From the UHGV virus genome UHGV-1722906: a stretch of DNA of 19,959 nt, one strand, 5' to 3'. Below the pieces are notes generated by a model. It ran no database searches. It was given only the letters and a program-made list of their open reading frames with translations, and was not told the origin of the DNA. Below are positions 3,980 to 18,986 of the stretch, in pieces; the stretch's first letter is position 1, and each line of letters starts with the position of its first letter. This DNA comes from a virus. The position numbers were made by a program, and so were the translations under genes.

Positions 3980-4532
3980 TTATTCTTCCTGCTTAATAAA
4001 TCGGGATTCCTGGAGCGCCTGAAGCGCAAAATTAATCTCGTCTTCAATAATGCGTTCGATCTCCCTGGCTGTTTTGCCTTCACAACGGGGAGCTGCTCTT
4101 GGAGCAATACTAAATAAGCGGCTACGCAATTCATTAGCTGCCAGAAATGCATCATCCCTGACCGCATCTTTAGCGATGAGAGAGCCTTCCTTTTCTTCAA
4201 ATTCAAGGCGTTTCAGCTTTGCCTGATAAATTTTTTCTGCGGTCTTAGCCTTGTTGAATTGCACCGCAACACCGGAAGTACCACCAGCTAATCCGGCATC
4301 ATCAGCGGGTAACTCTGGTTGTTCCGAAGATATCCCATGCCCTCTTTTTCCGTTTTCAGCAGATACCTCACGACCAACCTGTCGGCTCGCTTCATAAGCC
4401 GCACTAGCTTTATCAAAATCCAGCTTGCCGCTTTTCAGCACTGGAATGCGACCGGAACGACAGAGCTTCGTAACCATTGCCGGAGAAATACCTTTCCGGC
4501 GGGCAAACTCTGACTTACTGACGATGGCCATT
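3980..4532 (-). CDS. Terminase small subunit with N-terminal HTH
   Basis: Track ORF 3980..4540 begins with TTG. The ATG at about 4532 (MAIVSKSEFARRKGISPAMV...) overlaps the stop of the upstream ParB-like gene as TAATG, so it is the more likely start. N-terminal helix-turn-helix and a charged coiled C-terminal half are typical of Nu1-type small terminases. Confidence 0.7.
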
Positions 4533-5121
4533 ACTTGCAACCATTAGCAAGATACTGAACAAATCCCTCATGAGTTTCATGCGCGTCGTGGTACTGACGA
4601 TAAACATCCAGCAACAATGCAATTTCCATATCCGTCGCGGGAATACGTTCTTTATCAATAGCCAGGTACTTAATTTGAACAACAGGGGAAGAATTATCGT
4701 CTTCTTCCTGCGGCTGTTCATCGCTTAACATTTCGTCAAGCTCTGCATCATTAAACCCAAGCAGATCAATATCAAAATCATCATCCATTAACGCTTTGAC
4801 TTCTTCGGCCAGAAGCTGCATATCCCAGCCAGCATTTAAGGCCAGCTTGTTATCTGCAATCCTGTAAGCCTTCTTCTGTTTTTCAGAAAGGTTACTCAAC
4901 CGAATCGCTGGAACTTTATCCATTTCCAGAATTTCGGCTGCTGCAAGCCGCCCATGCCCCGCAATCAGTTCATTCTTTTCATCGATCAGCACAGGATTAG
5001 TGAAACCGAACTCACGGATACTGTTCACCAACTGTTCAACTTGCTCATCTGAATGAGTCCGTGAATTTTTGGCGTATCTGAGCAGCTTACCGACTGGTAA
5101 ATATTCGATTTTTAGAGCCAT
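4531..5121 (-). CDS. ParB-like nuclease domain (ParB/Srx fold) protein
   Basis: 196-aa ORF with motif LIDEKNELIAGHGRLAAA, matching the GxxR box of ParB N-terminal domains. Stop overlaps the terS start. Confidence 0.75.
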   Translation of the reverse strand: MALKIEYLPVGKLLRYAKNSRTHSDEQVEQLVNSIREFGFTNPVLIDEKNELIAGHGRLAAAEILEMDKVPAIRLSNLSEKQKKAYRIADNKLALNAGWDMQLLAEEVKALMDDDFDIDLLGFNDAELDEMLSDEQPQEEDDNSSPVVQIKYLAIDKERIPATDMEIALLLDVYRQYHDAHETHEGFVQYLANGCK

Positions 5122-5678
5122 TTTTTAACCGCCATAACACAACAGGTTAAAGAAAACTGTTTAACTTATTGATACTAAAAGAGAAAAATGACGATCTTTT
5201 TACTCATAAAAAATCACACAAACCAGCATAATCATCTGATTTTATTAAGTTTTTATAAGTAAAAAGGATCTTGATATGGTGTTTTGGTTAAAAGATTGGA
5301 TGTATTTGCATGATTTATAACGATTTTTATCAAAACAGCCTTACATTAGTTAAAGATCTGCGCGTATCTTGATGATCTAAAAGAAAATTTTCTACTTTCT
5401 TTTTACCATCGCAAGCACAGCAAAAAATCACGTTTTCCCAATATTTTTCAATGAGATGAGTAAATTTCTTTTACCGCAACTTTTAACCTAACTTTTTTCA
5501 CGTTTAGCTAGCCGAACATCGGGGTTCGAATGACCCGCATCCAACGCTTTTGGCCAGAAGGACCCAATTCTGCCGGACGATGAAACGATGCTCGTGCTCC
5601 CCCACAGACAGCCAGCGAGCGACGCTACAGAACACAGTGAATACACTCTGCATAACAACACCATCAACCACACGATGA
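5122..5678. promoter_or_regulatory. Long non-coding spacer: AT-rich promoter-like part (about 5130-5480, four GATC sites) plus a GC-rich part (about 5500-5678)
   Basis: No credible ORF; the two track ORFs here are short and Cys/Leu-rich. Sits upstream of the ParB-like/terS/terL operon on the minus strand. Confidence 0.35.
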
Positions 5679-6398
5679 TTAACGAGAGAAGGTCTTAGAA
5701 AGAATGTCATCAATAGCCTTTGTGACTTCATCAGCAAACGCATCCTCACCAGCACGCAGCGCCACGCCATGCCAATCAAGACGCTGCGAATAGTTAGGTT
5801 GCTGGATAAACGTAAGGATCAACGTAGGACGCCGCCCAACGCGCTGCCAGACACCTGGTTGAAGCGGGTTACTTGTACCAGGTCGAACAACAAAAAACTC
5901 CGTAGGCTTGCCCTGACGGCGATTTTGATGCGCATCTCGCTGAACTCTTAGGCCAGATAAGACCTGCTGTAATTGCCCCCGCGAAATATTCCCGTATTTG
6001 TCCAGCTTTGCGCCGGGACCAGGAGCAAGCTGCCAGCCGTTAGGCAAATATCCACCAGCCCTTAGCGCCCCTTCTGAGCGTTTGTACTGTCGTTGGCCAC
6101 CTTCGATTTGCGGAGTCAACGTTACAGGGGCTGGCGTTCCTCCCCATTCACGAGCATACACAATGGCTGTAGGATCACTCTTCTTTGCGGCCAAAACGTA
6201 AGTAGAGTTCTGAATCCACGGCGTGGGCCTGTCAAATACCCGATTAATTTCATTCTTAATCGCAGCCTGAGAAGCCTTTGCCGTTCTGGTTGCCGCAAGC
6301 GCCATTGCGAACGGCAATTCGCGTTCTTCAAGGCGCTGGAGTTGTCGTTGAATATCCTGAGAAGAAAAATCCATCTTTATCTCAATTCTGTCAGCCAC
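5679..6398 (-). CDS. Hypothetical protein (239 aa), function unknown
   Basis: Long ORF on the same strand as its neighbours, between the two ParB-domain genes. No motif I recognise. Confidence 0.55.
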   Translation of the reverse strand: MADRIEIKMDFSSQDIQRQLQRLEERELPFAMALAATRTAKASQAAIKNEINRVFDRPTPWIQNSTYVLAAKKSDPTAIVYAREWGGTPAPVTLTPQIEGGQRQYKRSEGALRAGGYLPNGWQLAPGPGAKLDKYGNISRGQLQQVLSGLRVQRDAHQNRRQGKPTEFFVVRPGTSNPLQPGVWQRVGRRPTLILTFIQQPNYSQRLDWHGVALRAGEDAFADEVTKAIDDILSKTFSR

Positions 6399-6414
6399 CA
6401 GCGCCTCCTACACA

Positions 6415-7794
6415 CTACTTAATCAACGGCCGGAAAGCCGCCAGCACATCATCAGATCGTCCGATTGTTGAACCACCAGGCAACGGCAACTCAAACTCAA
6501 AACGAACAGCTTTCTCCAGACTCGCCCAACTAAGGGAATCATCGTTAATGACGTGCAAATACCAGCTCTTACAGTTGAATATTGACCGCTTAATCCTGAA
6601 ACCATGTACACGACACAACTGCTTCACTTCATCATCAGAGTGAAACTTCTGGTAAAACCAGTGCCCCTTCCGGTACAACGCGGTAAAACCGTTATGATCA
6701 ATAAAATAAAGCCGGCTTTTGGAACTCGCCGCTTGTGTTTGCTTCAGGACTGTTTCCAGCTCTCCACGGCTACGACCAGAAAAGAATATTGACCCACCAG
6801 CTTTACACAGGCCTTTTAGAACCGTCAGAACGGACCATTCAGCCTCGACACTATCGACCGAGTTCAAAACGCTATCGCAAATCACGTAGTCGTAACGCCC
6901 TCGCGTTTTTAAGTCGTCCACCAGCGTATCAATCATCCGGTTTGTTGCGGCCCTATCCAGAGTGTTTCCAGCGCCCTTACGGCGGAAAAGCTCGAGATCA
7001 TGCAGGTTATATCCCTTTGCCCTGAGCATTCGCGCGTAGTCTCCCTGCCCCGAACCAAAATCAATTCCTCTTGGCGTCTTGGCAATGATCGGGAGGATCA
7101 ACGACTCATACAGGTTTGATTTCAGGCTGCCACCATTACGCAACCGCATAAGCTGCGCATACGTCTGGATGTATGTTGTTTTCTCCAGATGAGAATACTC
7201 AAATACACCATAAGTTTTATTCAGATAACTTTGGTATTTTTCCTTCTCAACATCAGGGATCACAAACACCGTTAGCGGTGTGCGCGTCATCTTCGCTGCT
7301 AATGCATACTGAGCACAGTGAATAACCTCGCCAGACTGAGTAGCAACACAACCACCCCACGGACCATACTTGATAACCAGTTCCGCTATGTTCTTTCGAA
7401 CATATGCCATTTTCGCGCGCATATTGCCTGAGATCTGGCTTGCCGATACCTGAACAAAACCATGCTTATCTTCCAGACCGGACACCCTGCAACGCTCATC
7501 TCCGCTATCAAAATCCGTTCCGTTATGCAGTTGGTTAAACCGTACTTCGTCGTATACCGTCGTTTCACAGGGCAACACATACACCGCAGCACGCGTTATT
7601 CCCAACTTACGTAGCGCCTTCGTCCTTTGGTGTCCCGCCACCAGCAAATCGCCGCGCACTATCAATGGCTTCACAAGCCCCAGCTCCCTGACGCTTTCCG
7701 CCAGCCTCGCAAGATCATCCTCACCGATAAAACGCGGGTTATATTCCGCGCCACGTAGGTGCGTTATGTCGTAATTGAGGTGAAGCATCAGCAC
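6415..7794 (-). CDS. ParB-like N-terminal domain fused to a class I SAM-dependent methyltransferase
   Basis: 459-aa ORF. N-terminus has LLVAGHQRTKALRKLG (ParB/Srx box). Centre has GIDFGSGQGDYARML, a glycine-rich SAM-binding motif I. I could find no DPPY/NPPY or PCQ motif, so the substrate is uncertain. Overlaps the upstream ParB gene by 7 nt. Confidence 0.75.
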   Translation of the reverse strand: MLMLHLNYDITHLRGAEYNPRFIGEDDLARLAESVRELGLVKPLIVRGDLLVAGHQRTKALRKLGITRAAVYVLPCETTVYDEVRFNQLHNGTDFDSGDERCRVSGLEDKHGFVQVSASQISGNMRAKMAYVRKNIAELVIKYGPWGGCVATQSGEVIHCAQYALAAKMTRTPLTVFVIPDVEKEKYQSYLNKTYGVFEYSHLEKTTYIQTYAQLMRLRNGGSLKSNLYESLILPIIAKTPRGIDFGSGQGDYARMLRAKGYNLHDLELFRRKGAGNTLDRAATNRMIDTLVDDLKTRGRYDYVICDSVLNSVDSVEAEWSVLTVLKGLCKAGGSIFFSGRSRGELETVLKQTQAASSKSRLYFIDHNGFTALYRKGHWFYQKFHSDDEVKQLCRVHGFRIKRSIFNCKSWYLHVINDDSLSWASLEKAVRFEFELPLPGGSTIGRSDDVLAAFRPLIK

Positions 7795-8411
7795 ACCTCC
7801 CCAGCCAGCAATGCGGATACAAATCCGATATAGCTGCCATTATCATCAACATAACGAGACACCGCGCAGTCAAAACGATCCGCTTCCTCATCCGTTGCCG
7901 GGATTTTATGACCTCCAAATGACAGGTACTGAACTTTTACGCCTGATTTGGCCTCATCCTTCTCAAATGGGATATCCATACCCTCTGTGTCATCGTAGAC
8001 CGCCGCACTCAATAAGTTATCCAGTTCGCGCTGAGTAAAACCAATTGAGTCCAGAGCAAAATCATCGGCCGCAAGATCTGCAAGCTCCGCGCTTAACAAC
8101 TCTTCATCCCAACCAGCATTCAGCGGAATACGGTTGTCGGCCAGACGATATGCCTTCTTCTGATTCTCCGTTAGCCCAGCCAGAACAATGCAGGGAACAT
8201 CATCCATCCCCAACTGAGTGGCCGCAGCAATTCGACCATGACCAGCAATTACAACGTTGTTCTCGTCTATCAGGATCGGATTAGTCCATCCGTACTCCTG
8301 TATGCTGGCAACAATCTGATCTACCTGCTCCACGGAGTGTGTGCGAGCGTTCTTTTCATAACCAATCAACACAGAAAGTGGTAAAGAAACCACATTAAGA
8401 TGTTTTGTCAT
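7788..8411 (-). CDS. ParB-like nuclease domain protein (paralog of 4531..5121)
   Basis: 207-aa ORF with motif LIDENNVVIAGHGRIAAA. Colinear with the 196-aa protein through shared blocks such as KNxRTHSxEQV, TENQKKAYRxADN and LNAGWD. Confidence 0.75.
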   Translation of the reverse strand: MTKHLNVVSLPLSVLIGYEKNARTHSVEQVDQIVASIQEYGWTNPILIDENNVVIAGHGRIAAATQLGMDDVPCIVLAGLTENQKKAYRLADNRIPLNAGWDEELLSAELADLAADDFALDSIGFTQRELDNLLSAAVYDDTEGMDIPFEKDEAKSGVKVQYLSFGGHKIPATDEEADRFDCAVSRYVDDNGSYIGFVSALLAGEVC

Positions 8412-8645: not shown

Positions 8646-9056
8646 TTACGCAGGGATCAAACGGAGGCAGCCGTTATTTACCTCAATACGAGAGTATTCC
8701 GGCTTACCATCAACGATTCCGGTAATGACAAGTTCGCCATCAGACGAGCATTCTTCTTTGTCGTCTTCAAGTACCGCGCCTTCTGGCAAATCAACACAGG
8801 CAAAAACAGGGCAGCCAGGATAACGATCATCTTCCATCGCAATCAGCATCGACTCACCGAACCACTCTGTGGTAGCACGGCCATCAGCCGCCTGATAGTG
8901 AATCAGATACTGGTTTTCGCCATTTGCATACTGAGCACGGGCTTGAACTTCTCCCCATTCGTCACTGATACGCATTGTTACCAGTTGGGATAATTCAAAC
9001 TTAAACGGAACAGACTCTGCACCAATGGCAATCGGTTTATCTTCTTTCTTTTCCAT
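8646..9056 (-). CDS. Strongly acidic hypothetical protein (136 aa)
   Basis: Track ORF is 8646..9125, but the ATG at 9056 is preceded by AGGTGA and lies just downstream of a terminator, so I take 9056 as the start. About 27 Asp+Glu against about 12 Lys+Arg. Confidence 0.5.
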   Translation of the reverse strand: MEKKEDKPIAIGAESVPFKFELSQLVTMRISDEWGEVQARAQYANGENQYLIHYQAADGRATTEWFGESMLIAMEDDRYPGCPVFACVDLPEGAVLEDDKEECSSDGELVITGIVDGKPEYSRIEVNNGCLRLIPA

Positions 9057-9068
9057 AACATCACCTGA

Positions 9069-9096
9069 AAATAAAAAGCCCCGCGACACCGCGAGG
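9069..9096 (-). terminator. Rho-independent terminator (GC hairpin plus U-run on the minus strand)
   Basis: Minus-strand RNA reads CCUCGCG-GUGU-CGCGGGG followed by CUUUUUAUUUU, about 10 nt after the stop of the 54-aa ORF. Confidence 0.6.
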
Positions 9097-9105
9097 CTGT
9101 AAGAG

Positions 9106-9270
9106 TTACTTTCGATAGAAATCAAGGCGCATTTGCTCCCGCTTAAGCCGAAAAGCTCTCTGCGCCACTAAGATGCGCCACAGGACACCAGCAATAACCA
9201 CCAGCGAGATACAAAAACACACGGCCACAACCATCAGAAAAATGCCAACACCATTCATGAAACTATCCAT
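9106..9270 (-). CDS. Small predicted membrane protein (about 54 aa)
   Basis: Below the ORF-track size cutoff. My translation is MDSFMNGVGIFLMVVAVCFCISLVVIAGVLWRILVAQRAFRLKREQMRLDFYRK: one hydrophobic helix then a basic tail. Followed by a terminator. Weak ribosome-binding site. Confidence 0.35.
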   Translation of the reverse strand: MDSFMNGVGIFLMVVAVCFCISLVVIAGVLWRILVAQRAFRLKREQMRLDFYRK

Positions 9271-9461
9271 TCTTCAATGAATATCTCCAGTAATGTCAAG
9301 AGATACGCCGTCCCCAGCGCGGTTCCTACCGATATAGCTAAGACAAACCTCAAAGATAACGAGGTGTCTTTCGCTTTTCTCCAGACGTAAGCGCCAGCCA
9401 GAAATACCAACAAATCTCTTATTGGAAGCGGAAACCAGAACAAATCACTCGGCAAGTCCAC
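9255..9461 (-). CDS. Small predicted membrane protein (68 aa)
   Basis: GTG start 2 nt after the upstream stop, preceded by GGAAGGA. Two hydrophobic segments (LLVFLAGAYVW, FVLAISVGTALGTAYLLTLL). Confidence 0.5.
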   Translation of the reverse strand: MDLPSDLFWFPLPIRDLLVFLAGAYVWRKAKDTSLSLRFVLAISVGTALGTAYLLTLLEIFIEEWIVS

Positions 9462-9463
9462 GG

Positions 9464-9919
9464 TTATATCCTTCCATTCATTTTTATCGGATGACCAGAT
9501 AGCCTTACGCAGTTGAGCTGTAAAGCTCCGGTATCAACTAAATAATCAACTAACATGATTAGAGATTCATATTCAGCCAGATAGCTAACCTGACGCATTC
9601 GACCGCCGTTGTTCTCCAGAATGTCGGCCACCTTTGCAGCCAACTCGCTTAGACAGGAGAACTTATTCCCATATATCGTTTTATACTCGCGCTTCTGGCA
9701 TTCTTCGGCTTGCGGCTGGTTATCGAGAGCTATCAGCGACCGATAACTATCAAGGAAGTCCACAATCTCATTCAGGCACTCTTTGGCTGCCTCATCGTGA
9801 CTTTTTCCGTATGCTTCATGGAGGACTTTCATCCTCATCATTGCTCCGTCACACATAATCGAAAGCGCGTAAAGCACATCACTAATCGCCATTTCTTTTT
9901 TGGTGCTTGTCGAAGGCAT
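9464..9919 (-). CDS. Hypothetical protein (151 aa), function unknown
   Basis: ATG preceded by AAGGAG at good spacing. First gene of a three-gene operon with the two small membrane proteins. Confidence 0.6.
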   Translation of the reverse strand: MPSTSTKKEMAISDVLYALSIMCDGAMMRMKVLHEAYGKSHDEAAKECLNEIVDFLDSYRSLIALDNQPQAEECQKREYKTIYGNKFSCLSELAAKVADILENNGGRMRQVSYLAEYESLIMLVDYLVDTGALQLNCVRLSGHPIKMNGRI

Positions 9920-9944
9920 CCCATGTTCTCCTTTGTCTGGATGT

Positions 9945-9970
9945 AAAAAAGCCCCGGCAATTGCCGAGGC
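9945..9970 (-). terminator. Rho-independent terminator on the minus strand
   Basis: Minus-strand RNA GCCUCGGCAA/UUGCCGGGGC hairpin followed by UUUUUU, just downstream of the 66-aa ORF stop. Confidence 0.5.
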
Positions 9971-9993
9971 TCGTTGTTCGTTATCGTTACGGT

Positions 9994-10194
9994 TTAATGC
10001 TCGCGTCGTCCGGCGACAACTTCGGATTTGTATTTCAGGTCGCCCAGCAAGAATTGCAGTTTAAGCATCTTTGCCGCCGTGTAGTTCCCTGATTCCACAA
10101 CCTCTTTCATGAGGTCATAAACGGCCGCTACATCATCAGCCAGGAACTCTTTGCGTTGCTGCTCAGTCGCACGTTTGAAGGAAATACGCATCAC
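9994..10194 (-). CDS. Hypothetical small protein (66 aa)
   Basis: 4-nt overlap with the upstream 89-aa ORF, terminator immediately downstream. Confidence 0.4.
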   Translation of the reverse strand: MMRISFKRATEQQRKEFLADDVAAVYDLMKEVVESGNYTAAKMLKLQFLLGDLKYKSEVVAGRREH

Positions 10195-10460
10195 TCATCA
10201 TCTCCTGCCGCACATACAACCTCACAAAAAACATCAGCGGAATGTTTCTCCTTGAACGAATGACGCTCAAAACCGCACTCAATATCAGGCGCAAAAACAT
10301 CCACCACATACGGTCTTTCAGAATGTTGGTTTTCCCAACGATAAACCGTAGTGACGTTGAAATGTTTTAACGCTTCACGGAACTCAACGCTGCCCGTCAG
10401 GTTTTTTGAGGTCAGGTATTGCAGGAGGTTTTTTACTACTTCACGGTCTTGTACTTTCAT
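10191..10460 (-). CDS. Hypothetical protein (89 aa)
   Basis: ORF downstream of an AT-rich promoter-like stretch (about 10540-10580), overlapping the next ORF by 4 nt. Confidence 0.5.
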   Translation of the reverse strand: MKVQDREVVKNLLQYLTSKNLTGSVEFREALKHFNVTTVYRWENQHSERPYVVDVFAPDIECGFERHSFKEKHSADVFCEVVCAAGDDE

Positions 10461-10581
10461 CGGGTTATCTCCGGTTTAACCAGGGCGGGTATCGCTCGGT
10501 TTCGGGTATAACCTTAGGAAATTTTTTCCCACCTGTAAAGCATTTTTTATATAAATATATAATTATATAATTCTATGAGCA

Positions 10582-10608
10582 CAAAAAAGCCCCTTTGCAA
10601 CAGGGGCT
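10582..10608 (-). terminator. Rho-independent terminator of the higBA operon
   Basis: Hairpin AGCCCCT-GTTGCAA-AGGGGCT followed by UUUUUU on the minus strand, 16 nt after the higA stop. Confidence 0.6.
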
Positions 10609-10623
10609 TATCATTCGTTCTGA

Positions 10624-10923
10624 TCAGATGTTAAACGCTATTCGTTTTCCTGTGGGAAGCTCAACATCCAGGCTTAATTTGCCTCCCATAGCTTCAACGT
10701 AACGCTTTAATGTCGCCAGCTTTAAATCATTTCCGCGCTGCTCCAGCTTTGTTACTGCTGGCTGGCTTATACCCATCGCCTCAGCAACCTGTTTTTGTGA
10801 TAACTGGAGTTCTTCACGCATCATCTGCAAGCCGACCTCAAGAATCATCTCATCTGCCATTTCTTTAATTCGCGCCTGGCTTTCAGGTGAACGGCTGGCA
10901 ATCACCTCATCTAATGTTCTCAT
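10624..10923 (-). CDS. higA: HigA-type antitoxin (XRE-family HTH)
   Basis: 99-aa ORF with HTH segment LSQKQVAEAMGISQPAVTKLEQ. Lies downstream of, and overlapping by 1 nt, a RelE/ParE-like toxin gene; toxin-first order is the HigBA pattern. Confidence 0.8.
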   Translation of the reverse strand: MRTLDEVIASRSPESQARIKEMADEMILEVGLQMMREELQLSQKQVAEAMGISQPAVTKLEQRGNDLKLATLKRYVEAMGGKLSLDVELPTGKRIAFNI

Positions 10924-11276
10924 TACTTGCTCTCCAGTGTGTTCAGATGTGCTGCAAACTCATCCTCAGCTATACGCACCAGTTTTTCATAAAACCGTTT
11001 ATCGTTACTTTTGTCTCCTGCACAAAGAACGATGGCCCGGCGAATCGGATCGAACGCATAAAAGGCTCTTATCGGACGGCCAGAAAACTGAACGCGAAGC
11101 TCTTTCATATTTTTGTACCGAGAACCTTTTACGGTATCGGCATATGGCCTGGGTAACTCAGGTCCGTAAACCTGTAGCTTTTTCAAATCAGCCAAAACCT
11201 TTTCCTGAAGAGCGTCTTCTTGCTCATTTAGCCAGTCGTCAAATCGCTGGCTAAAAAGTACCGTCCACATGCTCAA
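10923..11276 (-). CDS. higB: HigB-type toxin (RelE/ParE superfamily, addiction-module killer protein)
   Basis: 117-aa ORF (MSMWTVLFSQRFDDWL...LRVQFSGRPIRAFYAF...) resembling the HigB/Gp49-like killer family, encoded upstream of its antitoxin. Confidence 0.75.
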   Translation of the reverse strand: MSMWTVLFSQRFDDWLNEQEDALQEKVLADLKKLQVYGPELPRPYADTVKGSRYKNMKELRVQFSGRPIRAFYAFDPIRRAIVLCAGDKSNDKRFYEKLVRIAEDEFAAHLNTLESK

Positions 11277-11280
11277 TCCT

Positions 11281-11330
11281 ATAACCTGTAGTTTATATCA
11301 CTAACTATATAACCTGTGGGTTATAATTTC
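11281..11330. promoter_or_regulatory. higBA promoter/operator with palindromes
   Basis: Immediately upstream of the higB start: inverted repeat TATAACC-tgtg-GGTTATA at about 11308-11327 and a related copy ATAACCTGTAGTTTAT at 11281-11296. Typical antitoxin operator layout. Confidence 0.5.
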
Positions 11331-11514
11331 AAGAAAAACGGGGCTATTTAACATAATGGACGTTATCGGCACCACCGGATCACCGTTCATTGTCGGATCT
11401 AAAAAATCCGCTCAAAAGATCATGTTTTCCTGGGCGTTTTCCACCGTTTTTTATGTTGCTTATTTGTTAATGAAATCTCGTTTTCAGTTTCGCCTCATTT
11501 TCGACGCGAAAGCC

Positions 11515-13890: not shown

Positions 13891-14445
13891 TCAATGATTC
13901 CCAGCCGGAAACCTGCGGTAAAGCGTGGATAAGGTAACATCGAAGATAATCGCTATCCGCTTACGTGAAACACCATTCGCAATAAGCCTTCCGATCTGTT
14001 CCCATTGCTCTGGTGCCAGCTTTGAGCGACGTCCTCCTATCCTGCCGTTAGCCCTTGCCACCGCCAATCCTGCACGCGTTCTTTCAATCATATTTTCCCG
14101 CTCCATCTCTGCGACTGCACTCAGCATCGTGTAGGCAAAGCGGCCAATTGAAGTGCTAATTTTTATCCCTTCCGTAATCGAAATAAACTCAATGTTGTTT
14201 GATAAAAAATGGTTAAGTAAATCAACAAGATGAATCAGAGAACGCCCCATTCGGTCCAGCTTCCAGACAATAACCGTATCGCCCGGCCGTAGCACCTTAA
14301 GTAGCTTATCAAGCCCTGGCCGTTTTGATTTAGCACCGGATATTTTATCTTCAAAAATCCGGTCACATCCTGAACTCCTGAGCGCCTCCAGTTGTAATTC
14401 CAAATTCTGGTCAAAAGTTGACACCCTCGCATAACCATATTGCAT
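13891..14445 (-). CDS. pin: DNA invertase, serine recombinase of the Pin/Gin/Hin/Cin family
   Basis: 184-aa ORF with N-terminal catalytic motif GYARVSTFDQ and a C-terminal HTH (IAIIFDVTLSTLYRRFP) like the Hin/Pin DNA-binding domain. Sits next to inverted tail-fibre cassettes. Confidence 0.9.
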   Translation of the reverse strand: MQYGYARVSTFDQNLELQLEALRSSGCDRIFEDKISGAKSKRPGLDKLLKVLRPGDTVIVWKLDRMGRSLIHLVDLLNHFLSNNIEFISITEGIKISTSIGRFAYTMLSAVAEMERENMIERTRAGLAVARANGRIGGRRSKLAPEQWEQIGRLIANGVSRKRIAIIFDVTLSTLYRRFPAGNH

Positions 14446-14510
14446 ACTTTCTAAACCGCGATTGTTGCTAAAAGCGGGAAAAAATATCGTTCAGACGACA
14501 CAGAGGCAAT

Positions 14511-14536
14511 TCGCAAAAACCTCGGTTTGCAGGAAA
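14511..14536. other. gix/pix-like 26-bp site A (extra site between pin and the functional left site)
   Basis: Reverse complement reads TTCCTGCAAACC-GA-GGTTTTTGCGAA. Its left half and inner flank are identical to the right site and the start of the expressed variable segment. Core is 49 bp from site B, so out of frame with it. Confidence 0.5.
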
Positions 14537-14558
14537 CGGTAAATCAGGCTTGCCGCCG

Positions 14559-14584
14559 TTATCGAATACCTCGGTTTACGAGAA
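14559..14584. other. Left crossover site B at the start of the silent Sv' cassette
   Basis: Reverse complement reads TTCTCGTAAACC-GA-GGTATTCGATAA; the outer half and about 21 bp of flank (encoding AAVIEY) are identical to the constant side of site R. Confidence 0.65.
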
Positions 14585-15280
14585 CTCGGCACAAGCGGGG
14601 AAAAAATACCGTTACTCAGTACGGCGAATACCTGGACCAATCGACAAACATTCAGTGGTGGCCTTTCTGGGGAACTGTCCGGCAATGCCGCTACTGCAAC
14701 AAAGCTGAAAACAGCACGAAAAATTGCTGGAGTTGGTTTTGATGGTTCTAGCGATATTTCAATTAGTGCCAAAAATGTCAATGCATTTGCACTCCGACAA
14801 ACAGGTAATACTGTTAATGGTGATACTTCCGTTGGATGGAATTGGGATAGTGGTGCATATAACGCCATGATTGGTGGCGCATCTGCATTAATTCTTCACT
14901 TTAATATAAATGCTGGTAGCTGTCCTGCCGTACAATTCCGTGTGAATTATAAAAATGGTGGCATTTCCTACAGGTCAGCTCGTGATGGTTATGGATTTGA
15001 ATTAGGTTGGTCAGATTTCTATACCACGACACGAAAACCATCAGCGGGAGATGTTGGCGCATATACTAAAGCGGAATGTAATTCACGTTTTATTACAGGT
15101 GTTCGTTTAGGAGGCCTGTCATCTGTTCAAACATGGAATGGGCCTGGTTGGTCTGATAAGTCAGGTTATGTCGTTACGGGTTCAGTTAACGGAAACCGTG
15201 ATGAATTAATTGATACAACTCAGGCAAGGCCAATTCAGTATTGCATCAATGGAACGTGGTATAACGCGGGGAGTATTTAA
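14561..15280 (+). CDS. Alternative tail-fibre C-terminal cassette (Sv'-like); promoterless, no start codon, expressed only after inversion
   Basis: Frame open from site B to the stop at 15280 per the track frame (track ORF 14867..15280 is its first in-frame ATG). Translates to ...LGLRELGTSGEKIPLLSTANTW...HFNINAGSCPAVQFRVNYKNGG...IQYCINGTWYNAGSI, a typical side-tail-fibre C-terminal domain. Confidence 0.75.
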   Translation: MEYLGLRELGTSGEKIPLLSTANTWTNRQTFSGGLSGELSGNAATATKLKTARKIAGVGFDGSSDISISAKNVNAFALRQTGNTVNGDTSVGWNWDSGAYNAMIGGASALILHFNINAGSCPAVQFRVNYKNGGISYRSARDGYGFELGWSDFYTTTRKPSAGDVGAYTKAECNSRFITGVRLGGLSSVQTWNGPGWSDKSGYVVTGSVNGNRDELIDTTQARPIQYCINGTWYNAGSI

Positions 15281-15282
15281 TT

Positions 15283-15816
15283 ATGATGCACTTAAAAAAT
15301 ATTACTGCTGGCAACCCTAAAACAAAAGAGCAATACCAGCTAACGAAACAATTTAACATCAAATGGCTTTATTCAGAGGATGGAAAAAACTGGTATGAGG
15401 AACAAAAGAATTTCCAGCCAGACACTTTGAAAATGGTCTATGACCATAACGGCGTTATTATTTGTATTGAAAAGGATGTTTCAGCAATTAATCCGGAAGG
15501 CGCAAGCGTCGTTGAATTACCTGATATTACAGCAAATCGCCGTGCTGACATTTCGGGTAAATGGATGTTCAAAGATGGCGTAGTGGTAAGGCGAACTTAT
15601 ACCGAGGAAGAGCAGAGGCAGCAGGCGGAAAATGAAAAGCAAAGCCTGCTACAGCTCGTCAGGGATAAAACCCAACTATGGGACTCACAGCTACGGCTGG
15701 GCATCATTTCCGACGAGAATAAACAAAAATTAACAGAGTGGATGCTCTTTGCGCAGAAAGTCGAATCTACAGACACTTCCAGCCTGCCAGTAACGTTTCC
15801 CGAACAACCAGAATGA
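15283..15816 (+). CDS. tfa: Tail-fibre assembly protein, alternative copy (Tfa') for the silent cassette
   Basis: 177-aa ORF; N-terminus MMHLKNITAGNPKTKEQYQLTK...[13 protein letters not shown] is homologous to the opposite-strand tfa. Confidence 0.85.
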   Translation: MMHLKNITAGNPKTKEQYQLTKQFNIKWLYSEDGKNWYEEQKNFQPDTLKMVYDHNGVIICIEKDVSAINPEGASVVELPDITANRRADISGKWMFKDGVVVRRTYTEEEQRQQAENEKQSLLQLVRDKTQLWDSQLRLGIISDENKQKLTEWMLFAQKVESTDTSSLPVTFPEQPE

Positions 15817-15820
15817 GAGA

Positions 15821-15848
15821 AGGCCCGATATCGGGCCTTAATTTTTAC
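15821..15848 (+). terminator. Palindromic terminator between the convergent tfa genes
   Basis: Perfect palindrome AGGCCCGATATCGGGCCT followed by TTAATTTTTA on the plus strand. Confidence 0.55.
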
Positions 15849-16372
15849 TCTGGTTTTTGTGGCCATTCCGGCTTTGCCGTATCCACGCGGCTGACCAGAA
15901 CGCTGTAGCGTTCCCAGGCTTCCAGTCGTGTACGTTCCTCATCTGTTGCCATATTCAGCCTGACAGCGCGCTCCAGTGGCTGAATAACGCTTTCCGCTTC
16001 GGAAAGTAACGCGGCCTTTTGTGATTCGGCCTGTTGTTGCTGCTCGTCTGCCGTATAAATCCGTTTAACTACAGATCCGTCCTTAAACATCCACTTACCG
16101 GAATCATCGGCCCGACGATTGGCTGTTATATCGGGGACCTCAACGACGCTAAAACCTTCAGGGTTAAGCGTGGAGGCATCTTTAGTTATGGCAACAATAA
16201 TATTATGTTCATCGTAAACAATCTTTATTGTGTCTTCCTGAAAATTCTTTACCTCTTCATACCAGTTTTTTCCGTCTTCGGACCACAACCAGATAACGTC
16301 AAAATTCTTTGTTAATTCGTACTGTTCCAGTGTTTTAGCGTTACCAGCTTTAATGTTCTTTAAGTGCATCAT
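15845..16372 (-). CDS. tfa: Tail-fibre assembly protein (Tfa) for the currently expressed fibre
   Basis: 175-aa ORF 1 nt downstream of the tail-fibre stop, with the conserved Tfa N-terminus [22 protein letters not shown]. Confidence 0.85.
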
Positions 16373-16373
16373 A

Positions 16374-18986
16374 TTAAACGCTCGCTACATTATACCAGGT
16401 GCCATTTATATACTTTTGAATCGGTCTGTAATAAACACCCGCAATATTATCGGCAGAATTGGAACCTGTATCCTGAACATTAATACCAGACAATACATGA
16501 CCTGACGGGCACTGGAAATTCCATGTTTGCCAGTTGTTTACACCATAATATTGCTGTGAGCCAAGCCGAACATCCTTTACATATCGGGAATCAATGTTAC
16601 CCCAATTGCTTGGTTGTATCTGACCGTTTACAGCAAATATCACCGAGTTATCTGTATTCCGCTGACTATAGAAATGCCAGCCTGAATCATCACCAAGCTC
16701 TGCAACAGTTGGTCTTGACGAATTTCCCCACAAGTTAAATGATGCATTACGGGCAGAGTTATTTGCACTTGCAAGAGTGAATAACTTACTTTCCCCAGCT
16801 TGAATACCCTTTAATGATATTGCTGAACCATTTCTAAAGCGGAATACATGCACACCATTAGCATAAGCATCCAGCACCCCATCACCATTTTGTTTAAACC
16901 CGGTATCGTTATCTCCTAAAACTATTGAATTGCCACCCAGGGCATTAGCCGTTCCAATCCCCAGATTTCCGCTAAAAATGGCATTAATACCGAATATTGA
17001 GTGAGAACAATAAAACCCTCGTCCATTGTTAAAATCCAGAATGGTCTGTACATTTGTGCTTTCTGTCGCGGGATTAGTTGCCCCCCACTTATATCTTGTT
17101 TGATCGATAGTATAATCCTGTGTTGGAACAATAACAGTTAGTCCTTCTTCAGCAAGAATCCGCACAGGAAAAGCCCTGCCTTCAATGTAAAAAACGCTGC
17201 ATACATCATCTTCTTTCATGCTTGTAACGATAGAATGGATTGCGCGTTCATTAGACTGATACGTCGAAAAATAACCTGCCGCATATGAACCACGATCAGT
17301 CCAGCCACCAGGCATTACCATTCCATTGAATTCGCAGTTATTCATTGCGTAATCACCACTGGCAGATGTGGTCGTTATAATCACTCTGGAAGCCAGCTCG
17401 CCAGTGCTGCCTGTGGAACGCCGGAAAATAACTGGATACCACTTTCCACCAACTGCATTAGACGGCGCATTAAATGCGTACTGCCGCATTCCTTTTTTCT
17501 TATCCACCTCGCCTTTGCTGTAAACATTAATGTTACTCAGGAAGCGACCCTTATCAGGAATATCCGCGCCGTTCTGGTTTTTTTGTAATGCGCCAGAAGC
17601 CTGATTTACCGTTTCCTGCAAACCGAGGTATTCGATAACGGCGGCAACGGTCGATTTCGCAAGAATATCCCGCCCGACTTTTGTCAGAGTTGCCAGGCTG
17701 GCGACATCATTCCCCGTAAAATACGGAAACCTGTCTGCCGCAGTGGCAAGCCCGGCCAGTGCGCTCAGCGTGTTGTCTTTCGGTTGCTTACCCGCAAGCG
17801 CGTTAGTCATGGTGGTCGCAAAATTCGGGTCGTTGCCCAACGCCGCAGCCAGCTCGTTCAGCGTATTCAGTGCGTCAGGCGACGAGTCCACGAGGGCAGC
17901 GATCGCAGCCATAACATAAGCCGTGCTTGCGATCTGAGTATTGTTAGTACCTTTTGGCGCAGTTGGTGTTGTTGGTGTTCCGGTCAGCGCCGGACTGTTC
18001 AGGGGCGCTTTCTTGTTCGTTTCATCCATTACCACCTTTACAGCTTTCGATGTCGCGGCCAGTGTTTCAGACGTGCTGTTGGTGGCACTACTGAGCTGAG
18101 TTATTCCCCTTACAGTCAGTGAAGCTACAGGCACATTTGTTATCTGCGCCCACGAATGCGTGTGATTGGACGGAGCCTTTCCGGCCGCAAGATCATACGC
18201 TGCCTTAACAGCCTTTGGTGTTGCTGCCAGCGTTTCAGACGTGCTGTTGGTGGCACTACTGAGCTGAACAATCCCTTTTCGCGCTGTGGTAGCGTCCTGT
18301 GCGGTGTATTTAGCGTTAGCCAGGTCATATGCTGCCTTAACAGCCTTAGGCGTCGCAGCAAGCATTTCAGACGTGCTATTGGTGGCGCTGCTAAGTTGAA
18401 CAAAGCCTTTTGAGGTTAAAGTTGCATCAGGATGATTACGTGATTGCTCATGTTTCACAATGGCTTGCTTAAGCCGCTTTGCTGAAACAGCAAGGGAATC
18501 ATCTGTACCTGCATCAATTTCTTGTTCATTAGCAAATCTTGCCACCCCAACAACAGTTTCGGTCGCGGGAGGATTAATAAACTCAATATCACCAAATGTA
18601 ATATTTTTAGTATCAAGAGTTTTAATTGCTATATCACTTGATATTAAAGCGATAGTAGATGATGCTTTATTTATTATTGCTTGTTCTTGTGAGTATACAG
18701 CAAACAACGTACCCTTATTCGTATACAATCCTATTGTATGGACAACATACTCATCTTTACTATCATCCTTCGCTGTTACATGAATTGTATCAGGGGAAAC
18801 AACTTTGCCACCTATTGTGGTAAGTCGTTTTATTTCGTTTGTTATATTTGTTTGTGAAGTTGACGTGACATAATATCTACTACCTAAACCAACAGAAACA
18901 ATCTCAACTTTATTTGTTCCTGTTTTGTTGGCATTAACCAGCTCCTGACGCCCGGCGTCAGTCATCGTAAATAATAATTTACTCAC
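16374..18986 (-). CDS. Side tail-fibre protein (constant N-terminal part plus currently expressed variable C-terminal part)
   Basis: 870-aa ORF with three copies of the repeat [11 protein letters not shown][TM]LAAT[PS]KAVK and C-terminal motif [13 protein letters not shown]. Contains crossover site R at residues 448-458. Confidence 0.9.
17613..17638. other. Right crossover site R inside the tail-fibre gene (constant/variable junction)
   Basis: TTCCTGCAAACC-GA-GGTATTCGATAA on the plus strand, closely matching the Mu gix consensus as I recall it. Encodes [11 protein letters not shown] at tail-fibre residues 448-458; inverted relative to sites A and B. Confidence 0.7.
18029..18400. repeat. Three tandem intragenic repeats (about 130 bp each) encoding the tail-fibre repeat motif
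   Basis: Near-identical stretches containing GTTTCAGACGTGCTGTTGGTGGCACTACTGAGCTGA recur three times, corresponding to tail-fibre residues about 197-320. Confidence 0.6.

Follow-up and report, generated by a model that had tools for sequence, protein, structure and literature searches.

Superinfection exclusion in phages T4 (Imm and Sp), HK97 (gp15), and P22 (SieA) is encoded by genes for small membrane proteins. The RexA/RexB system of phage lambda follows a two-part abortive-infection logic, in which a soluble sensor is paired with a membrane effector; RexB is a 144-aa membrane protein with four helices, and the two proteins are expressed in the lysogen from dedicated promoters. Morons, found in lambdoid and HK97-like phages, are insertions that separate conserved genes and comprise a gene with its promoter and terminator. 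Here we compare these systems with a cassette of three minus-strand open reading frames (ORFs), orf151, orf68, and orf54, located in a 19,959-nt stretch of UHGV virus genome UHGV-1722906 (the window). Judged by its sequence, the source element is a phage-plasmid of a ~48-kb myovirus-type family.

The cassette is similar to the genes for Imm, Sp, gp15, and SieA in that it encodes very small inner-membrane proteins, lies in a non-structural region, is dispensable for plaque formation, and evolves fast. However, it has no sequence or profile similarity to these genes, and it differs from them in combining two membrane micro-proteins with a coupled cytoplasmic protein, in being promoterless, and in having a strong terminator directly upstream. 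As in RexA/RexB, a soluble protein, here one of variable modules, is encoded beside its membrane partner or partners, but the proteins are not homologous and expression of the cassette appears to be gated by the upstream terminator (T1). The cassette also resembles a moron, being a terminator-bounded unit among conserved genes in a variable neighborhood. Unlike a moron, it lacks a promoter, its slot is filled in all relatives examined, and its GC content is not clearly atypical.

With high confidence, the locus is a genuine three-gene cassette that occupies a conserved, fast-evolving, modular slot and encodes a cytoplasmic helical protein together with two inner-membrane micro-proteins. The initial annotation had placed the three ORFs at 9106-9919, and these coordinates matched three minus-strand ORFs (Table 1). 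It had also described their junctions as overlapping. This is true of orf68 and orf54, which overlap by 16 nt when orf54 is read from its 54-aa start or through an ATGA stop/start overlap when it is read from its 50-aa start, but orf151 and orf68 are adjacent, with the GTG codon of orf68 located 2 nt past the TAA stop of orf151. The three genes are predicted with high confidence to be translationally coupled, and the ribosome-binding sites (RBS) and the stop/start coupling are intact in all sequences of the E. coli lineage in which the junctions could be matched.

Table 1. Coordinates of the cassette, its flanking signals, and other features of the window and of related sequences (UTR, untranslated region)
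Feature	Coordinates	Strand	Description
orf151	9919..9464	-	ATG start; Shine-Dalgarno AAAGGAGAA 6-7 nt upstream; phrog_14707
orf68	9461..9255	-	GTG start; Shine-Dalgarno GGAAGGA 7 nt upstream
orf54	9270..9106	-	ATG start; alternative 50-aa form from ATG at 9258
T1, intrinsic terminator	9972..9949	-	10-bp stem, 7 GC pairs, TTTTTT tail; -18.8 kcal/mol; z = -5.4
T2, intrinsic terminator	9098..9077	-	9-bp stem, T-run; -16.6 kcal/mol; z = -4.6
Repeated promoter/5'-UTR/RBS module	10461..10582	-	~125 nt; AT-rich tract, promoter, GGAGA RBS; ends exactly at orf89 ATG
Promoter within the module	10539..10534 and 10516..10511	-	TTTACA-17 nt-TAAGGT
orf89	10191..10460	-	phrog_6143, no assigned function; first gene of upstream unit
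orf66	9994..10194	-	phrog_6621, no assigned function; T1 directly after stop
136-aa gene	8646..9056	-	phrog_1935, no assigned function; starts right past T2
HigB/HigA-type toxin-antitoxin pair	10624-11276	-	Gp49/RelE-like toxin, 117 aa; HTH_3 antitoxin, 99 aa
Gin/Cin-like invertase	13891..14445		adjoins invertible tail-fiber segment (region 13891-18986)
Promoter module copies	window 10456-10582	-	
	L001 17576-17688		
	L023 8659-8790		
	L022 1625-1753		
	L007 3050-3178		
~250-nt non-coding element	L007 3700-3975		equivalent in L009 and L011
	L006 3392-3672	-	
	L013 5892-6172	-	

The second and third genes had been proposed to encode single- or double-pass small membrane proteins, and a membrane-helix check upheld this for orf54 more firmly than for orf68. 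The orf54 product contains a strongly hydrophobic helix at residues ~8-30, with a summed insertion free energy (dG, Hessa scale) of ~-4 kcal/mol. A short, slightly acidic N terminus precedes the helix, and a basic C-terminal tail, RI(L/F)V.Q..F..KRE (net +6), follows it; the positive-inside rule predicts an N-out, C-in topology. Variable sites in orf54 are distributed 7/1/5 over the three codon positions, so that position 2 is avoided, as expected for a maintained hydrophobic helix. The 3' end of the gene is swapped along with the downstream gene, which results in three alternative C termini, and the exchange point falls in the last orf54 codons.

The orf68 product has one marginal transmembrane helix, at residues ~39-60 (dG ~+0.4). 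Its N-terminal hydrophobic stretch, which holds Pro, Arg, and Asp, is doubtful as a second membrane helix (dG +7.8). The conserved core of the protein, LL(V/M)FLA(G/A)AYVW(R/Q)KAK, is followed by the hydrophobic helix. In the records examined, RefSeq/PGAP leaves orf68 unannotated and annotates orf151 and the 50-aa form of orf54. We rejected the possibility that orf68 is a chance ORF, since a divergent IMG/VR relative (L022, a 47-kb contig) contains a syntenic homolog of 67 aa that is 42% identical and 70% similar to it (pairwise expect [E] value of 3e-20) despite saturated synonymous sites. Elsewhere, orf68 acquired a stop four codons before its end (L014) or a 10-codon in-frame deletion (L016).

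The first gene was correctly described as well initiated, and its product, as a protein of no known family. Among the PHROG families, orf151 matched phrog_14707, end to end (E of 8.5e-103), and, through its N-terminal part, phrog_8319, which corresponds to a 99-aa form of the protein; neither family carries a functional annotation, and both record only occurrence in phage genomes. The protein is devoid of hydrophobic segments and is predicted to be soluble and all-helical. It comprises an N-module (residues 1-65), modeled by AlphaFold as a helical hairpin with a predicted local distance difference test (pLDDT) score of 71-81, and a C-module (residues 72-140). AlphaFold2 models of the whole protein were poor, with a pLDDT of 47 from the single sequence and 56 from a 23-sequence alignment.

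The soluble protein occurs in architectures of 151, 99, 194, 250, and 323 aa. In the long homologs (194-323 aa), the middle of the protein carries a variable insert, and the C-terminal part is extended by the segment VDGISLSQLQQLF and by a tail of repetitive sequence, for example AITVNSPAITVSAP. The 151-aa form of the window ends exactly where the VDGISLSQLQQLF segment of the long forms starts, at the turn of a putative helix-turn-helix, and lacks both the C-terminal tail and the putative recognition helix. About two-thirds of the E. coli plasmids, including that of strain ATCC 25922, encode the 99-aa form, composed of the N-module and a short tail without the C-module; this tail is faintly similar to that of the long forms (7 of 13 residues identical, E of 0.02). 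Several matches to DNA-binding or related families fell below the family thresholds. The motif LNSVKKVDGISLSQLQQLF of the long forms resembles the helix-turn-helix of Rrf2/IscR (NCBIfam E of 0.012, in the long homolog P0016), weak winged-helix matches were found to DUF7343 in 5 members (E of 0.045) and to HTH_60 in P0022, and the N-module of 13 of the 23 members resembles the helical part of DUF1804 (best E of 0.0036). With only such subthreshold matches and an empty PDB profile search, orf151 could not be assigned to a helix-turn-helix family. A natural fusion of orf151 and orf68, 221 aa long and caused by a frameshift, is present in one isolate (P0052, SPW74365.1).

Terminators had been predicted on both sides of the cassette, and the two hairpins T1 and T2 agree with this prediction. 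T2 is located directly past the orf54 stop, and the RBS of the next gene immediately follows it. Overall, the 3.5-kb region contains 10 terminator-like sites, ~3 times the 3.4 +/- 2.1 expected from shuffled sequences. T1 and the orf151 leader are almost invariant among the E. coli, Citrobacter, and Salmonella relatives, the coding sequences of which are ~35% identical. The positions of both terminators are kept in Citrobacter, where T2 has another sequence and the same hairpin-plus-T-run design; in L007 and L022, likewise, a terminator of different sequence holds the T2 position.

A promoter cannot fit directly upstream of orf151, because the T-run of T1 ends ~10 nt before the RBS. No credible sigma-70 site was found at 9920-10200, where the best weight-matrix scores were ordinary, nor in the interiors of orf66 and orf89. 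With no site in any of these places, we rejected a promoter of the cassette's own. The nearest credible promoter is located upstream of orf89, within a repeated module, and its spacer holds the inverted repeat GGAAA-AAA-TTTCC, which by inference looks like an operator (GGAAA-N3-TTTCC). Every complete plasmid contains three copies of the module, each of them ending at a start codon, with the promoter consensus TTTACA-17-TA(A/T)GGT. The module is conserved across genera (87% mean column identity in L022 and L007; 87% in the Citrobacter-type relatives), and an equivalent of the promoter-like site was found in L006 and L022. This module is probably a family-specific regulated promoter and is the likely source of the transcripts that reach the cassette. 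Lacking its own promoter, the cassette would need read-through of T1 from the orf89-upstream module to be expressed. We infer from the sequence that the cassette is not an autonomous operon but belongs to a larger transcription array, within which a terminator gates it.

Several relatives have a non-coding element of ~250 nt immediately before the orf151 homolog, with an intrinsic terminator on either side (Table 1). It is absent from the window, where it would fall between 9973 and 9993. The element is ~90-95% identical across the E. coli, Citrobacter, and Salmonella variants, as read from the alignment rather than computed, whereas the adjoining genes are only 35-70% identical at the protein level. 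Its RNAalifold consensus has an energy of -80.8 kcal/mol with few covariations, and it belongs to no Rfam family: at the gathering threshold, Rfam returned nothing in the window, L006, or L007, and at an E-value threshold, only terminator look-alikes. The element is a candidate structured RNA or leader ending at T1.

The cassette is conserved well beyond E. coli. All three genes are present in L022 at 32-42% amino acid identity and in the same order: a 246-aa homolog of orf151, the 67-aa homolog of orf68 joined to it by an ATGA overlap, and a 50-aa homolog of orf54 with a 13-nt overlap. In L007, L009, and L011, which come from Citrobacter and Salmonella, a soluble homolog of 194-251 aa is followed without a gap by an uncalled 55-aa ORF, the syntenic homolog of orf54, with which it has the motif IFL..(A)V(W)...RRI(F/L)V.Q..F..KRE in common. 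No counterpart of orf68 was found in these three sequences. The slot is syntenic across Escherichia, Salmonella, Citrobacter, a Klebsiella aerogenes plasmid, and Yersinia phages and is occupied in all relatives examined, with varying contents.

Nonsynonymous divergence (dN) of the cassette is 0.5-0.7, as opposed to 0.135 for the adjacent ParB-like gene, and synonymous divergence (dS) is saturated for both. This difference in dN at saturated dS indicates that the ORFs are maintained and that their proteins evolve ~4-5 times faster than the ParB-like neighbor. The two small genes upstream, orf89 and orf66, show the same pattern. The exact 68-aa and 50-aa sequences were each found on ~1,000 or more contigs, always as a "hypothetical protein," and in the majority of the 14 sequences compared none of the three ORFs is interrupted. 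We therefore regard all three as real genes. At the same time, we consider the cassette accessory, dispensable for both plaque formation and plasmid maintenance, because the plaque-forming phages vB_YpM_41 and vB_YpM_44 carry a frameshifted orf54 and because the soluble protein is truncated in the E. coli forms. The lesion in the two phages is a shared 1-nt deletion that cuts orf54 short past its membrane helix (L002 3841-4016).

Function searches were largely empty. For none of the three proteins did Pfam, NCBIfam, or PHROGs point to a family with a known function, and in PADLOC-DB v2 neither they nor three flanking proteins had a match at an E of <=1. Four real clusters came out of an exhaustive phmmer search of 1.84 billion representatives; matches P0017, P0019, and P0021 were rejected as repeat-protein artifacts after their sequences were read. 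Word-indexed searches with orf151 and P0016 returned the same phage-plasmid family only, a profile of the orf54 family had no match outside it, and tblastn of the small proteins against phages found the Yersinia phages only. A search for related loci yielded three loci, all viral, and the genome collection contributed none. Foldseek, queried with the poor orf151 model against BFVD and PDB, returned nothing at an E of <=0.001. We found no paper that mentions these proteins or their accession numbers.

These searches also bear on the functional classes suggested by the initial annotation, which had considered a structural or replication role improbable. In agreement, neither family scans nor synteny revealed any structural or replication signature in the cassette. 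As to its suggestion of a small toxin or holin-like function, none of the three proteins matches a toxin, antitoxin, or holin family. Nor is there an antisense RNA signature: promoter-like sites on the opposite strand, 3 against 5.0 expected, are at or below chance. What would have spoken against its interpretation, homology to a known lysis cassette, was looked for and not found. Pfam, PHROGs, and NCBIfam have no holin, antiholin, endolysin, or spanin match among the three proteins, and the lysis genes of the family (PF16931, PF05449, and GH108) are placed elsewhere in complete relatives, so the cassette was rejected as a lysis cassette. In those relatives it is not contiguous with the endolysin gene: the tRNA gene and the MT-A70 methyltransferase gene, along with two small genes and terminators, lie in between. 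In the window itself, no endolysin or other lysis gene was found. Of the features of superinfection-exclusion genes, a small inner-membrane protein is present by prediction, with a strong helix in orf54 and a marginal one in orf68. Of the features of a moron, only the downstream terminator, T2, is present, whereas a dedicated promoter, presence/absence among relatives, and atypical composition are not.

The reading that we tentatively favor, plausible though somewhat short of probable, is that of a gated, promoterless cassette which encodes an inner-membrane complex with an accessory job of exclusion or defense type. Transcripts would start at the repeated promoter/5'-UTR module upstream of orf89, with its operator-like inverted repeat in the spacer, and would have to read through the strong T1. 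Expression of the cassette would be low, or else confined to times when the upstream promoter is active and T1 fails to stop transcription; phage development is the most plausible such time. Its products would assemble into a small inner-membrane complex, in which the cytoplasmic protein would have orf54, with its N-out/C-in topology and basic cytoplasmic tail, and orf68 as its partners or effectors in the membrane. This complex may block the entry of competing phage DNA or perturb the membrane when triggered, and it would be accessory and non-essential. That its function is of exclusion or defense type, and not virion assembly, replication, or core lysis, is proposed with low confidence; the grounds for it are that the cassette combines membrane micro-proteins, tight coupling to a modular soluble partner, fast evolution, and dispensability with no structural, replication, or lysis signature.

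Several observations weigh against this interpretation. The label of exclusion or defense, given with low confidence, has two sources only: the base rate among small membrane proteins of phages and the fast evolution of the cassette. PADLOC and all other libraries were empty, and the poor AlphaFold models give no fold-level support. Classical exclusion and abortive-infection genes act in the prophage state, and the strong T1 together with a probably regulated promoter argues against expression of the cassette in the plasmid-prophage state. Within the E. coli lineage, the ratio of nonsynonymous to synonymous polymorphism (pN/pS) is 0.66 for orf151, 0.44 for orf68, and 0.91 for orf54, which looks like weak constraint but is based on very few substitutions, the divergence being too low for a decisive verdict on selection. 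Finally, this weak constraint, the premature stop and the deletion in orf68, and the truncation of orf151 also fit decay.

The initial annotation had favored cargo of the superinfection-exclusion, abortive-infection, or small toxin/holin-like kind. In the moron-like version of this proposal, an autonomous operon expressed in the plasmid-prophage state would protect the lysogen by superinfection exclusion or abortive infection or would encode a small membrane toxin. Such cargo is consistent with the fast evolution of the cassette and with its small membrane proteins, which are encoded in a non-structural region and bracketed by terminators, and the HigB/HigA-type pair with its own promoter in the neighboring slot demonstrates that the region tolerates accessory units. 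This proposal is nevertheless unlikely, if the most credible of the rivals, as there is no promoter from T1 to the orf151 RBS or inside orf66, the slot is syntenically conserved across genera and filled in all relatives examined rather than present or absent, GC content is only slightly below that of the flanks (0.43-0.48 versus 0.47-0.52), PADLOC is empty, and the antisense RNA signature does not exceed chance. A little less credible again is a family-specific, three-component inner-membrane system with a mechanism unrelated to the catalogued ones, in which the two micro-proteins would be coupled to a cytoplasmic protein that acts as adaptor or sensor and has exchangeable modules in its middle and at its C terminus. 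Gated by the conserved terminator and, in some relatives, also by the ~250-nt non-coding element, such a system may act in exclusion, abortive infection, or control of the lytic program. We consider it quite improbable that the cassette is an accessory of lysis timing, with holin- or antiholin-like membrane modulators and a soluble cytoplasmic regulator, by analogy with rI/rIII of T4 and LysA of P2. In complete relatives it lies 2-3 kb past the lysis cassette in the same orientation, orf54 joins a transmembrane helix to a highly basic cytoplasmic tail, a combination common in holins, and known lysis-timing genes are dispensable for plaque formation, as this cassette is. However, no holin, antiholin, or spanin family was matched, the family is already equipped with two holin-family genes along with an endolysin and a 92-aa gene, the intervening genes and terminators described above set the cassette apart from them, and the window keeps the cassette without any lysis genes.

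Decay must also be considered, as the ORFs may be relics of an ancestral module and the cassette a remnant degenerating in the E. coli lineage. The soluble protein exists there in two alternative deletion forms, a frameshift interrupts orf54 in two phages, L014 and L016 have an orf68 with a truncation or an indel, and pN/pS reaches 0.66-0.91. Against these stand the persistence of the exact 68-aa and 50-aa sequences on so many contigs, the three ORFs open in most sequences compared, the avoidance of codon position 2 among the variable sites of orf54, with hydrophobicity kept, and the intact RBS and stop/start coupling wherever junctions of the E. coli lineage could be matched, so that we judge decay just as improbable as a role in lysis timing. 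The least likely explanation is a membrane-tethered DNA-binding or regulatory module, in which the long forms, with their C-terminal helix-turn-helix-like motif, would be held or controlled at the membrane by the orf54 tail and the 151- and 99-aa forms would be derived truncations. By analogy with p16.7 of phi29, such a module may anchor phage-plasmid DNA; alternatively, it may regulate phage development. The resemblance of LNSVKKVDGISLSQLQQLF to Rrf2/IscR, the weak DUF7343, HTH_60, and DUF1804 matches, and the fusion of orf151 with orf68 all point in this direction. Yet every supporting match is below its family threshold and the PDB profile search is empty, the orf151 of the window ends at the turn, before the putative recognition helix, and the fusion is a single frameshifted record.

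The window region is 95-99.6% identical to ~60 non-mobilizable plasmids of ~46-52 kb each, including the plasmid of E. coli ATCC 25922. Their hosts belong to Escherichia nearly throughout, with a single Klebsiella aerogenes plasmid. Further matches are to three Yersinia pestis myophages that form plaques (vB_YpM_39, 41, and 44), and the region is present in 69 out of 5,426 complete E. coli genomes. Judging from the texts, the named phage-plasmid groups (P1, SSU5/pSLy3, N15, pCAV, and others) do not include this family. The window also encodes an IncFII-type RepA, a Gin-like invertase with tail-fiber genes, and a P2-type baseplate gene. In annotated relatives, the cassette is embedded in a single long array of co-directional genes. 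The upstream part of the array leads from early-like genes to a pair of holin genes, the gene for a GH108 endolysin, and a 92-aa gene, and then to a tRNA gene and the MT-A70 methyltransferase gene. Downstream of these are two small genes (orf89 and orf66 in the window), the cassette, a variable gene, three ParB/Srx-domain genes, one of which is fused to a methyltransferase, and the genes for terminase, portal, and a ClpP-like protease.

Among the neighbors of the cassette, orf89 has syntenic 97-aa homologs in L007 and L022 and evolves fast, with 40% amino acid identity to the L022 homolog. The gene past T2 forms a variable boundary of the slot and is a replacement hotspot: in place of the 136-aa gene, relatives carry an N-terminally extended 237-aa form, a DUF2513 gene, or genes of 87-101 aa (variants read at L005 1979-2386 and L018, and at L004 and L002 1737-2450/3111-3824). 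The genes with ParB/Srx N-terminal domains, encoding 207, 459 (with the methyltransferase domain), and 196 aa, are arranged in a row at 4531-8411 of the window on the minus strand, immediately preceding the terminase genes. A gap of ~560 bp (5122-5678), in which no ORF of >=80 aa is listed, separates the 196-aa ParB/Srx gene from a 239-aa gene. In the Yersinia phage record OR545054, the sequence is linearized ~143 nt downstream of the homolog of the 239-aa gene, at about position 5536 of the window. Possibly, this gap is the cos/pac region.

On the other side of the cassette, the HigBA-type pair has a promoter-like site at 11332..11304 (10/12 match) and its own terminator at 10609..10587. The switch from the orf89 context to the HigBA-RepA context occurs at 10582/10583, inside a copy of the repeated promoter module. 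Among the complete plasmids, the distance between these contexts, wherever both could be read, ranges from ~17 kb (NZ_MW390530.1) to ~27 kb (NZ_CP062206.1). The junction is suggestive of recombination between repeat copies, by deletion or inversion, which would remove the intervening lysis, methyltransferase, partition, and immunity regions; no PLSDB plasmid shows it. Further along, the invertible tail-fiber segment next to the invertase gene has inverted repeats at 14516-14584 and 17597-17647, alternative fiber C termini, and two tail-fiber assembly genes in opposite orientation.

The genes of the cassette are already present in databases as hypothetical proteins. New are the conserved pair or triplet that includes unannotated micro-protein genes, the gated layout, and the domain-swapped variants. 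RefSeq misses a conserved micro-protein gene, orf68, and the gene calls of the Citrobacter and Salmonella contigs miss the 55-aa gene. Phage-plasmids of this family are common in E. coli and are carried by the reference strain ATCC 25922. If the cassette does nothing measurable, it would be one more fast-evolving filler slot. If it is an exclusion or defense device, it would represent a compact orphan membrane-based system that comes with a natural set of domain-swapped variants.

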